In this document: in pieces, positions 47,191 to 49,038 of the stretch
How positions within the stretch are numbered: position 1 is the first letter of the stretch
Layout of the letters: each line of letters starts with the position of its first letter
Assembly: GCF_963921235.1 (NCBI RefSeq)
Contig: NC_086097.1
Coordinates: 13,702,001-13,766,000, forward strand
Direction: 5' to 3'
Origin: Mobula hypostoma
Lineage: Eukaryota
DNA length: 64,000 bases
Notes under the pieces: generated by a model
What the model was told of the DNA's origin: nothing
What the model saw: only the letters and a program-made list of their open reading frames with translations
Database searches by the model: none
Program-made: the position numbers and the translations under genes

Positions 47191-47982
47191 ACAGGCAGTC
47201 TATTCTGACTCCATTGTTTCCATGCTGCATTGTTTTATGGCCTCCAAAAGATCACGGGACATCTGATTGCCTTTTTAAATTTATGTGTTCACGGTGCCTA
47301 ATTCAACATTTATCTATCATCTCTAACTGCCTTTTGACCAGACAGTTTATTGAGCTATTTCAGCGAGCAGCTAAAATTCAACCTCTTTTGGGCGTGGAGT
47401 CATATATACATCAAACTGTGCAAAGATGGCAATTGTGCTTCCCTGAAGGACATCAGTGAACAGGTTAGGTTTATATAACATTAAGTAGCCTATGGTTTCA
47501 AGTGCAGATAGCATATTTATGTTCCAGATATGTGTCATTACTTTTATTTTAGAGATACAGCATAGTAACAGACCCTTTCGGCCTAAAAAGCCTGGCCCAC
47601 CCAGTTACCCCCATGAGATCAATAAACCCACTAAACCGGTATGTCTTTGGAATTTGGGCGGAAATTGGAGCACCGGACGGAAATTCACATGGTCATGGGA
47701 GATTGTACAATCTCCTTACAAACACCAGAGGAATTGAACTTGATTGTTCGGATGATGCTTGGGTTGAAGAATGATAGCTATAAGGAGAGGTTGGAAAAAA
47801 TGGATTGTTTTCTCCGGGGTGTCAATAACTGAGGAGAAACCTCATGGAAGTATATACAATTATGAGAGGCTTAGATAGATGAAGTAGTCAGGATGGAACT
47901 CTTAATTACTAGAGGGTGTCGTTATAAAGTGAGAGGGGAACAGTTTAAAGGAGATTTGTGTGGAAATACTTTACACAGAAAG

Positions 47983-48189
47983 CCCATCACCCCTACTGAG
48001 GCATAGTCTGCCAACAGCAGCTTTGTCCTGGGCCAGTCTTTCAGGTTGTCCGCAGGCGTCGGATAAGGTCTTTGCAGCCTCAGGTTGCCGTTTTCTGTCG
48101 CACTGGGTTTTTAACTGGATGGGGTTGCTAGCCCCATGCCCAGCCCGCTTCCTTTCACAGCTTGGTTTGGCACTGTCTGTAGCGGAGTT
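47983..48189 (-). mobile_element. 207-bp non-autonomous RTE-type element with a twister-ribozyme-derived 5' end
   Basis: 8-bp TSD ACAGAAAG (47975-47982, 48190-48197) inside an old CR1; 5' end AACTCCGC...GAAAGGAAGCGGGCTGGGCATGGGGCTAGCAACCCCATC; RTE-like 3' end 'ggcccaggac...ctgttggcagactatgcctcagtaggggtgatggg'. Confidence 0.75.
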
Positions 48190-48190
48190 A
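48141..48190 (-). ncRNA. Degenerate twister ribozyme 3' cleavage product
   Basis: U^AAC-UCC-GCU-ACAG..AGUGCCAAACC..CUGU-GAAA-GGA-AGCGGG aligns to the twister pattern U^AAC-UCC-GCC..GGUCCCAAGCCC..AAA-GGA-GGAGGG. Confidence 0.55.
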
Positions 48191-49038
48191 CAGAAAGTGG
48201 TCGGTGTCTGGAATGTGCTGCCAGGGAGGGGTAGAAGGCAGAGACAAATGCAGCATTTAGGAGATATTTAGACAGGAACATAAAGAGGCAGGAGATAAAG
48301 GGCTAGGCATCAGGTGCAGGCAGAAGGGGTTAGTTCAAATTGGCATCATGTGCTGAAAGGCCTGGTCCTGTGCTGAACTGGTCCATGTTCTATGTCATCT
48401 TATTGTACATTGTACAATGCACCAGGAGAACTTGCATAATTGGCATCCACATTTTTTTCTGGATGAAGACTTCAGGATAAGAGGGGAGGTTGAGGCAGTA
48501 CACAACCCAGAGAGTATTTACTCTGTTACCCTTGAGAAGGCCGTAATGAGCCTCCTCCTGGAACTGCAGCTGTCCTGGTAATGTTATCCCCAATTTCTAG
48601 TTGCATAGGGAGTTTCAGGATTTTAATTCATCAACAGTGATGTTATTTCCCAGCTGGGAAGTTTTGTGACTTGGATGGGAATTTGTAGGTGGTGGACTTC
48701 CTATTCACCTGCTGCCCTTCTCGGTGATAGGAGGGGGGTGTGGGAGGTGCTCCCATCACGGATTTGACAGCTGCTGTGTTACACTTTGTAGACGCACAGT
48801 TCAGTTATGGTGCAGTGGCGGAGGGAGCAGTGAACATTGAGGCCACCTCTCCAGAAGGGCTACGTTACTTGCTGAAGATGGCTCACCACCAACTCACCAA
48901 AGGCAATAATGGATGAACAACAGCCCCCCCTCCCTCTCCCTCCCCCCCTCCCTCTATCTCTCCCCCCCTCTCCCTCTCTCCTCACCCTCTCCCACATTCT
49001 CCATCAAATACTCTAGGAGTATGAAAAGTCTTTTAAAG

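Follow-up and report, generated by a model that had tools for sequence, protein, structure and literature searches.

To our knowledge, no biological role of twister ribozymes was confirmed before 2021, when they were linked to one flatworm retrotransposon of the RTE clade. Members of this clade are long interspersed elements (LINEs) of ~3.3 kb with one open reading frame (ORF) ~1000 aa long, which encodes an N-terminal apurinic endonuclease (APE) and a reverse transcriptase (RT). In Perere-3, an RTE-clade element of Schistosoma mansoni, a twister 'T-variant' lies at the 5' end, and its cleavage was shown in reporter constructs as well as in vitro (Liu et al. 2021, Nucleic Acids Res, PMC8501958); the available portion of that article also describes co-transcription of Perere-3 with its twister, a target duplication next to the AA, a P1 5' strand supplied by the flank, and a (GTAA)n 3' end. 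According to the accessible text of another report, the R2 SIDEs ('Short Internally Deleted Elements') of Drosophila combine a 5' ribozyme with a LINE 3' end (Eickbush & Eickbush 2012, Mob DNA, PMC3414825). Here we describe a 207-bp insert in a 64,000-nucleotide stretch of the genome of the ray Mobula hypostoma (contig NC_086097.1, positions 13,702,001 to 13,766,000 of the forward strand; this whole stretch is called the window). The insert is very probably a dead copy of a non-autonomous, internally deleted derivative of an RTE-type LINE, which consists of the first ~140-195 nt and the last ~75-120 nt of that LINE, carries a twister at its head, and would have been released by cleavage and mobilised in trans. 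An original prediction made from the window had read it as a twister-cut, RTE-mobilised head-plus-tail parasite, and the genome comparisons given below support such a reading.

As far as the available parts of these reports go, the closest known case is the Perere-3 twister and the closest known architecture is the R2 SIDE; that twisters occur at the 5' ends of RTE retrotransposons, which the original prediction had taken as established, is in print for Schistosoma Perere-3 (PMC8501958). Like Perere-3, the ray family has a twister at the very 5' end of an APE- and RT-encoding LINE, a duplication adjoining the AA, and a P1 5' strand that comes from the flank. The 3' tandem repeats are GTAA in Perere-3, and GAA and GTAA in the ray family, and the modules CUCC, GC, GUCCCAAGC, CCGG, GGAG, GAGGG and UUGG are identical to those printed for Perere-3 twisters. 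Unlike in Perere-3, a short continuous stem (CAUGG.../...CUGUG) stands in place of the P3 hairpin, which makes a predicted ribozyme of only ~50 nt; the host is not Schistosoma and has a 3.48-Gb genome, and the dominant form is a ~255-275-bp internally deleted derivative. No description of such a derivative was found in the available portions of PMC8501958 or its supplement.

Like the R2 SIDE, which depends on a LINE RT and on co-transcription followed by self-cleavage, the ray element is non-autonomous and joins a ribozyme to a LINE 3' end. However, the R2 SIDE is described in the accessible text as carrying a hepatitis delta virus (HDV)-like ribozyme, inserting site-specifically in ribosomal DNA and being rare, whereas the ray family carries a twister, occupies varied sites and numbers thousands of copies. 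L1Tc and NARTc of Trypanosoma cruzi, from what is available of two reports (PMC3185411, PMC3383444), are a LINE and a short, non-autonomous partner with a common ribozyme-containing 5' head, as here, although that ribozyme belongs to the HDV-like type and its 77 nt double as an internal promoter; the ray family is not known to have promoter activity. The supplement of PMC8501958, in its available part, contains twister variants from teleosts and snakes as motif matches without element structure. Among these, the bonytongue and cyprinid entries have ...GGTCCCAAGCCCGG(A/G)TAAAGGAGGAGGGTTGGGC(A/G)TGGGG in common with the ray family, including bases that lie beyond the ribozyme, and one catfish entry is likewise P3-less; the terms 'shark', 'Callorhinchus', 'Rhincodon' and 'Latimeria' are not mentioned in that supplement. 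No twister-headed short derivative, nor such elements in cartilaginous fish, were found described in full-text literature searches; curated repeat libraries (Repbase, Dfam) lay outside this comparison, and the family may already carry a name there.

Positions are given in window coordinates, the element being read on the minus strand from base 48189 down to 47983; the host genome comprises 3.48 Gb in 200 contigs, and counts of first-look candidates are rough. As originally predicted, the 207 bp are bracketed by a perfect 8-bp duplication (ACAGAAAG on the + strand). The left flank is an older repeat with 79 first-look candidates at 69-86% identity, and in 3/5 fetched paralogs (L128, L129, L130) the left flank runs uninterrupted into the right one, with a single ACAGAGAG/CCAGAGAG at the junction; of the remaining two, L127 departs after the 8-mer and L126 is too diverged for reading. 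Because the 8-mer stands on both sides and three paralogs show the empty site, this is a genuine insertion flanked by a target-site duplication. Read on the element strand, the duplication starts with CTT, and other copies end ...GATGGGCTTAAG; since CTT may also belong to the 3' end of the element itself, the true duplication is 5 to 8 bp. Directly after the duplication, the minus-strand reading begins AACTCCGCTACAGACAGTGCC... (in a longer excerpt, AACTCCGCTACAGACAGTGCCAAACC...), and element base 1 is the A directly 3' of the predicted twister cleavage site, where the original prediction had placed it. The older host repeat itself spans window 47830-47982 and 48198-48290, and its paralogs show the empty site.

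A genome-wide search with the insert as query yielded 2186 first-look candidates, 40 of which were scored and gave 45 matches at 69-89% identity; a tail-only query yielded 2362 first-look candidates, and the window itself holds a single copy. From all loci fetched to that point, 67 non-redundant heads were drawn, of which 66 could be aligned for a majority sequence. The 5' end of the family is sharp: nt 1 is A in 57/67 heads, nt 2 is A in 62/67, and 43/67 start with AAC. Positions -12 to -1 have no consensus and the flanks are unrelated, and thus the predicted clustering of 5' ends was found, on the AA after the cleavage site with nothing conserved upstream. An exact duplication of at least 8 nt adjoins base -1 in 8/67 copies, compared with 0/67 when the anchor was moved 18 nt upstream. 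Copies usually measure ~255 bp (L015 type) or ~275 bp (L019 type) and end ...GATGGGCTTAAG, followed by (AAG)n or (TAAG)n. The commonest short form corresponds to LINE nt 1-~143 plus the last ~118 nt, because its junction maps to those LINE points, and the L019-type form to ~195 nt plus ~75 nt. Intermediates of ~415 bp (L092, L093, L095, L103+L096) keep ~63 C-terminal codons; in L092, L093 and L095, head and tail lie about 155 nt apart. As in a SIDE, the ribozyme-bearing 5' end and the 3' end of one LINE are therefore joined directly in the short form.

The majority of the 66 heads reads AACTCCGCCATGGACnGTCCCAAGCCCGGCTGTGAAAGGAGGAGGGTTGG, and the expectation that a consensus would restore the twister core was borne out by it. 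In its available part, Table 1 of PMC8501958 gives the modules of Schistosoma twisters as L1 UAA, P2 CUCC, L2 GC, a P3 hairpin, P4 CCG, L4 GUCCCAAGC, CCGG, GUAAA/GUGAA, GGAG, GAGGG and P1 UUGG (Liu et al. 2021), and the majority head matches all of them save the P3 hairpin and the P4 5' strand (ACG vs CCG). The place of the P3 hairpin is taken by CAUGGA and, on the opposite side, CUGUG; these two can form a 5-bp stem that prolongs P4 at its lower end, and this CAUGG/CUGUG stem includes G.U pairs. The conserved loop nucleotides (AA 3' of the cleavage site, GC, GUCCCAAGC, AAA, GAGGG) are all present in the majority and in the individual copies L010, L032, L034, L035 and L036. P2 (CUCC/GGAG) is paired in 84.6% of the alignment cells, and the two pseudoknots are complementary in the majority, with CCC-GGG pairs in 50-55/66 copies and GC-GC pairs in 37 and 45/66; the nucleotides assigned to these pseudoknots are those which we take to form them in the twister fold. 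Overall, 74.3% of cells conform to the proposed pairs, both pseudoknots counted, vs 34-47% in slid registers. The replacement of CGG/CCG by CAG/CUG was considered as a compensatory change and rejected, as it reflects two independent CpG decays with no consistent co-occurrence.

Infernal with the Rfam twister-P1 model (RF03160) gave 38.2 bits for L010 and 36.7 bits for L004, with intact copies overall at 36.7-47 bits; genome-wide, 9 matches were obtained from 62 scored candidates, the best being L031 at 46.9 bits (E=3.7e-6), and a control scan of 14 well-known non-animal genomes gave no match. A 35-nt core pattern with at most 2 mismatches occurred 557 times in the ray genome (277 forward, 280 reverse; 17 exact), and its reversed control 0 times. 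In L031, a 4-bp P1 arises by chance from the flank, and the structure of minimum energy is then the nested P1/P2/P3-P4. T at position -1 is mildly enriched (23/57 vs 27.6% T in flanks, i.e., ~16 expected; roughly 2 sd by estimate), from which no conclusion was drawn. In our reading, a predicted P3-less twister of type P1 makes up the initial ~50 nt both of the LINE and of the short forms derived from it.

The window copy itself is decayed. Its RF03160 match is weak (21.4 bits, E=0.11, 48194..48140 on the minus strand, vs 36.7-47 bits for intact copies), and its head departs from the majority at 10/50 nt (element nt 9, 11, 12, 19, 24, 27, 28, 41, 43 and 47), in keeping with the degeneracy that had been predicted. 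These changes strike the T1 C-run, the L4 AAGC, the P4 3' strand, P2 and GAGGG; the conserved loop nucleotides are no longer complete, the copy reading GUGCCAAAC and GCGGG, and P4 has been lost, along with one pair each of T1 and T2 and some of GAGGG. The UCC/GGA pairing of the original prediction is present and represents 3/4 of the P2 pairs. The ACAG/CUGU pairing is present as well, but not as the P4 that had been proposed: in intact relatives it prolongs the P3/P4 stem at the lower end, and the actual P4, which is CG/CG in those copies, has been destroyed in the window copy. Judging from these losses, the window copy is a dead, inert fossil that cannot be active. It is shorter than the typical ~255-bp copies because of two internal deletions, and the deletion in its tail takes out the RGLWR codons. 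The claimed absence of an ORF and of tRNA features was also confirmed: the insert has no start-to-stop gene, and ARAGORN found no tRNA in 47700-48500. One stop-free frame spans the insert and reads ...QPERLAQD..KAAVGRLCLSRGDGL, which is a remnant of a LINE C-terminus. An Rfam scan of the copy (E<=10) detected no tRNA, 7SL or 5S RNA, and hence no classical RNA polymerase III (Pol III) head of short interspersed elements (SINEs); it returned the weak twister-P1 match, two chance long non-coding RNA matches and nothing else.

The tail led to the parent LINE. In one frame it reads ...KMGYTWGQLERLAQDRGLWRAAVGSLCPSRGDGLKKK; a word-indexed protein search with tail peptide P0001 ('longer' lengths) gave no match, and an exhaustive profile search with tail peptides gave 37 proteins. 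Several of these end ...RRWRWIGHTLRKP...ITRQALTWNPQGKR.RGRPRNTWRRDL...KMGYTWNQLERMAQDRGLWRSVVDGLCPKRGDGHK, one carries an RVT_1 fragment, and as genome queries they recovered many LINE fragments, including L088. Thirteen C-terminal LINE matches were fetched, and 8/13 of these 3' ends (L089-L091, L094, L096-L099) match short-element nt ~145 to ~252-262 at 76-86%, with more LINE coding sequence and no head upstream in the fetched stretch; one of the eight, L096, was later placed in a ~415-bp intermediate with a head upstream. L100 and L101, the highest-scoring LINE C-termini, have only 18 nt in common with the short tail. The C12 copy (L102+L094) is truncated at about residue 293, with RT pieces that share 44-52% identity with the RT portion of the L088 ORF; internal DNA of the twister-bearing LINE, taken from this copy, has only 37 candidates genome-wide, with longer matches at 70-80%.

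At the other end of the LINE, a head is present in 6/12 predicted 5' windows (L114, L116, L117, L119, L120, L122), and APE-domain coding follows it in three of them (L116, L120, L122) within the stretch fetched. Five of the six start AAC or AAT after an unrelated flank, three LINE 5' ends score 26.0-28.3 bits on twister-P1, and in all six the twister is followed by the segment that makes up element nt ~51-129. Parts of this segment (within nt 40-116) are 67-81% identical to the 5' untranslated region (UTR) of the L088/L112/L113 RTE family. An RTE-type LINE with both ends of the short element, which the original prediction called for, thus exists in the same genome, although its sampled copies are all broken. 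This parent is a scarce and degraded LINE that retains pieces of APE and RT coding sequence along with both short-element ends. As in RTE elements, the 3' UTR, judged from the ends of the copies and of L088, is very short and ends in short tandem repeats without poly(A); the single ~1000-aa ORF with APE and RT is seen in the related L088 family, the twister-bearing subfamily showing broken APE/RT pieces only. Divergence is alike in both forms (69-89% for short copies, 70-80% for longer matches of LINE copies).

L088 (357-3323, minus strand; G000:C36:131598900-131603100) contains an intact 988-aa ORF with Exo_endo_phos, RVT_1 and DUF6451 domains. The stop codon precedes a (GAA)n run by ~13 nt. 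The 5' UTR shows homology to head nt 40-98, and two more 5' ends of the family, L112 and L113, agree with that of L088. The best relatives of the ORF are ~1000-aa proteins, 54-61% identical, from snails, Schistosoma species, amphioxus, lungfish and bichir, many of them on contigs of 3.2-3.7 kb; those from Schistosoma are probably Perere-3-like. No twister was detected at E<=1 in L088 or in ten 5' regions (L104-L113). The L088/L112/L113 family was accordingly rejected as the parent, its twister search being negative and the L088 tail being unlike that of the short element, and the APE group L104-L111 (41-45% identity) was rejected because its 5' regions were negative in the same search. Three other leads to the LINE were abandoned: the middle segment of L019-type copies, for which all 30 loci were short elements; the tail-only DNA query, for which 6/6 fetched loci were short elements; and a 213-bp extra segment in L033, which is an unrelated ~220-bp repeat with 2092 first-look candidates.

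The anatomy, the clustering of 5' ends, the duplications adjoining the A, the parent LINE with both ends and the nested deletion derivatives were seen directly; from these and by analogy with Perere-3, we infer cleavage, read-through transcription and mobilisation by the twister-bearing LINE. The short element, which has no recognisable promoter of its own, would be transcribed inside a longer host transcript, and the twister would then cut the bond that joins the flanking base to the first A, so that almost all of the ribozyme stays with the downstream RNA. The LINE RT would recognise the common 3' end (C-terminal coding sequence plus (GAA)n/(GTAA)n) and copy the RNA into a nicked target by target-primed reverse transcription. 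Copying of the cleaved RNA would yield full-length cDNA with AAC as its very first bases and a short target duplication around it, and since the P1 5' strand would never be carried along, each new copy would have a random one.

Several results weigh against this reading. Transcription that starts at a fixed site would also produce a sharp 5' end. In the majority, P4 opens with an A.G mismatch in place of the C-G of the model and is otherwise CG/CG, and covariation among the 66 heads is absent (74.3% paired vs 73.8% in shuffles, with 77/500 shuffles as high). The latter result was read as uninformative, because inserted copies decay neutrally, and the structure therefore rests on likeness to known twisters. 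No copy reaches the Rfam gathering score (best 46.9 vs 67.2 bits), so that the threshold is formally unmet; part of the shortfall arises because, in the printed alignments, the P3 hairpin is missing entirely and P1 (flank-random) is largely unpaired. The minimum-energy folds of L010 and L036 lack the twister helices, which only L031 gave, and z-scores of the folds are unremarkable (-1.6 to +0.6), nested folding being unable to model pseudoknots, and flank pairing that rebuilds P1 is no commoner than in shifted controls. Half of the predicted LINE 5' windows (6/12) have no head, and these may be 5'-truncated or mispredicted; every sampled copy of the twister-bearing LINE subfamily is broken, with no intact ORF; and the one intact RTE ORF found, that of L088, comes from a related family whose tail differs and in which no twister was detected.

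Part of this evidence would fit a history in which the twister is only a fossil and cleavage plays no part, the sharp 5' end being the transcription start of an internal promoter that lies in the initial ~150 nt, like those of many LINEs and like the Pr77 region of L1Tc. Any full-length retroelement family has a defined 5' end, no copy passes the Rfam cut-off, covariation among copies is absent, and the related L088 RTE family keeps the downstream 5' UTR without a detectable twister, so that such elements apparently can do without one. Nevertheless, we regard this history as quite unlikely: the first base of the family falls on the exact twister cleavage position, one of ~50 positions in the motif; the majority and 17 exact genomic cores preserve the sequence modules of tested twisters; the window copy has no Pol III-type head (Rfam at E<=10 and ARAGORN); and the same arrangement cleaves in Perere-3, as the available text of PMC8501958 reports. 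That the likeness is mere chance or a convergent GC-rich hairpin in an ordinary LINE-derived repeat with no ribozyme history is hardly credible. The window copy taken alone, at 21.4 bits and E=0.11, would permit it, but the majority and many copies match twister modules over ~45 nt, the best genomic match has E=3.7e-6, the core pattern gives 557 matches vs 0 when reversed, and teleost twister variants in the accessible part of the PMC8501958 supplement have the same downstream bases, GGAGGAGGGTTGGGCATGGGG. As far as sequence evidence goes, chance likeness is already refuted.

A further question is which LINE supplied the machinery. The short elements might be mobilised through their (GAA)n/(GTAA)n end by another RTE family (e.g., of the L088 type) or by another LINE, with the twister-bearing LINE as a donor of parts only. 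The twister-bearing LINE is rare (37 internal candidates) and broken in all sampled copies, short copies number in the thousands, and L088 has an intact 988-aa ORF and likewise ends in (GAA)n, all of which would suit such a donor role. However, the tail common to the short element and the twister-bearing LINE is ~110 nt long and 76-86% identical, whereas the L088 3' end has only the (GAA)n repeat in common with it, and L100 and L101 only 18 nt; the divergence of short copies (69-89%) and of the LINE (70-80%, longer matches) is also similar. Mobilisation by another LINE is thus unlikely in our view, and mobilisation by the twister-bearing LINE itself is preferred.

The deleted RTE derivative described here extends the arrangement of a twister at an RTE 5' end to a 3.48-Gb animal genome, in a smaller, P3-less form, and this arrangement supports a highly successful non-autonomous parasite built from two LINE ends alone. 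If cleavage is true, 5' processing by twisters would be generalised to RTE elements beyond flatworms, a natural twister of ~50 nt would work from any upstream context, and a ribozyme-headed type would be added to the short interspersed elements that repeat annotators look for. More tentatively, and with considerable doubt, twister-headed deleted RTE derivatives may be an overlooked promoterless class of 'SINE' in large animal genomes, in which a P1-independent mini-twister of ~50 nt would free the element from any read-through transcript and the short form would thereby outnumber the LINE ~50:1; head-to-tail arrays of 54 nt x 11.6 (L083) might then be twister satellites that cut themselves into monomers like hammerhead satellites.

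Table 1. Features of the insertion in window coordinates, with the evidence for each.
Feature	Position	Strand	Evidence
Short internally deleted retroelement, 207 bp, decayed	47983..48189	-	Alignment with 29 other copies
Degenerate P3-less type-P1 twister head (predicted), element nt 1-50	48140..48189	-	RF03160 match and comparison with majority sequence
Segment from LINE 5' UTR and ORF start, element nt ~51-129	48061..48139	-	Copy alignment; tail junction +/-10 nt
Tail: last LINE ORF codons (...ERLAQD...AVGRLCLSRGDGL) and 3' end	47983..48060	-	Translation; LINE 3'-end matches
Target-site duplication, copy beside element 3' end	47975..47982	.	Same 8-mer at 48190-48197; empty paralogous sites hold the 8-mer once
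Target-site duplication, copy adjoining the element's 5' A	48190..48197	.	Identical 8-mer; empty-site paralogs

Additional observations were made at individual loci. Directly upstream of a short element in L083 (206-832; G000:C45:3894770-3895670) lie 11.6 tandem units of 54 nt with 96% matches; on the element strand, each unit is a whole twister-like head (AAC start, ...GGGTATG end) with its core already altered, and the array resembles a satellite of ribozyme units. In L069 (1710-3099; G000:C45:878299-881397), ~40 tandem units of 34-35 nt contain the 5' half of the head only (AACTTCACCATGG.CAGTCCCAGGCCCGG...). The short element in L033 (1226-1438; G000:C67:21823302-21826352) is interrupted by the unrelated ~220-bp repeat, which is probably another short interspersed element. 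Three LINE C-terminal matches at G000:C1:98007762, 98080799 and 98157093, with 88.9-89.1 bits and 64% identity each, are spaced ~75 kb apart, a pattern that points to recent segmental triplication of a stretch with a LINE 3' end. In L030 (1365-1517, -), L068 (1367-1624, +) and L080 (1426-1722, -), a frame is open from head through tail, which may be due to chance; these copies look like the first codons of the LINE ORF fused in frame to the last ones.

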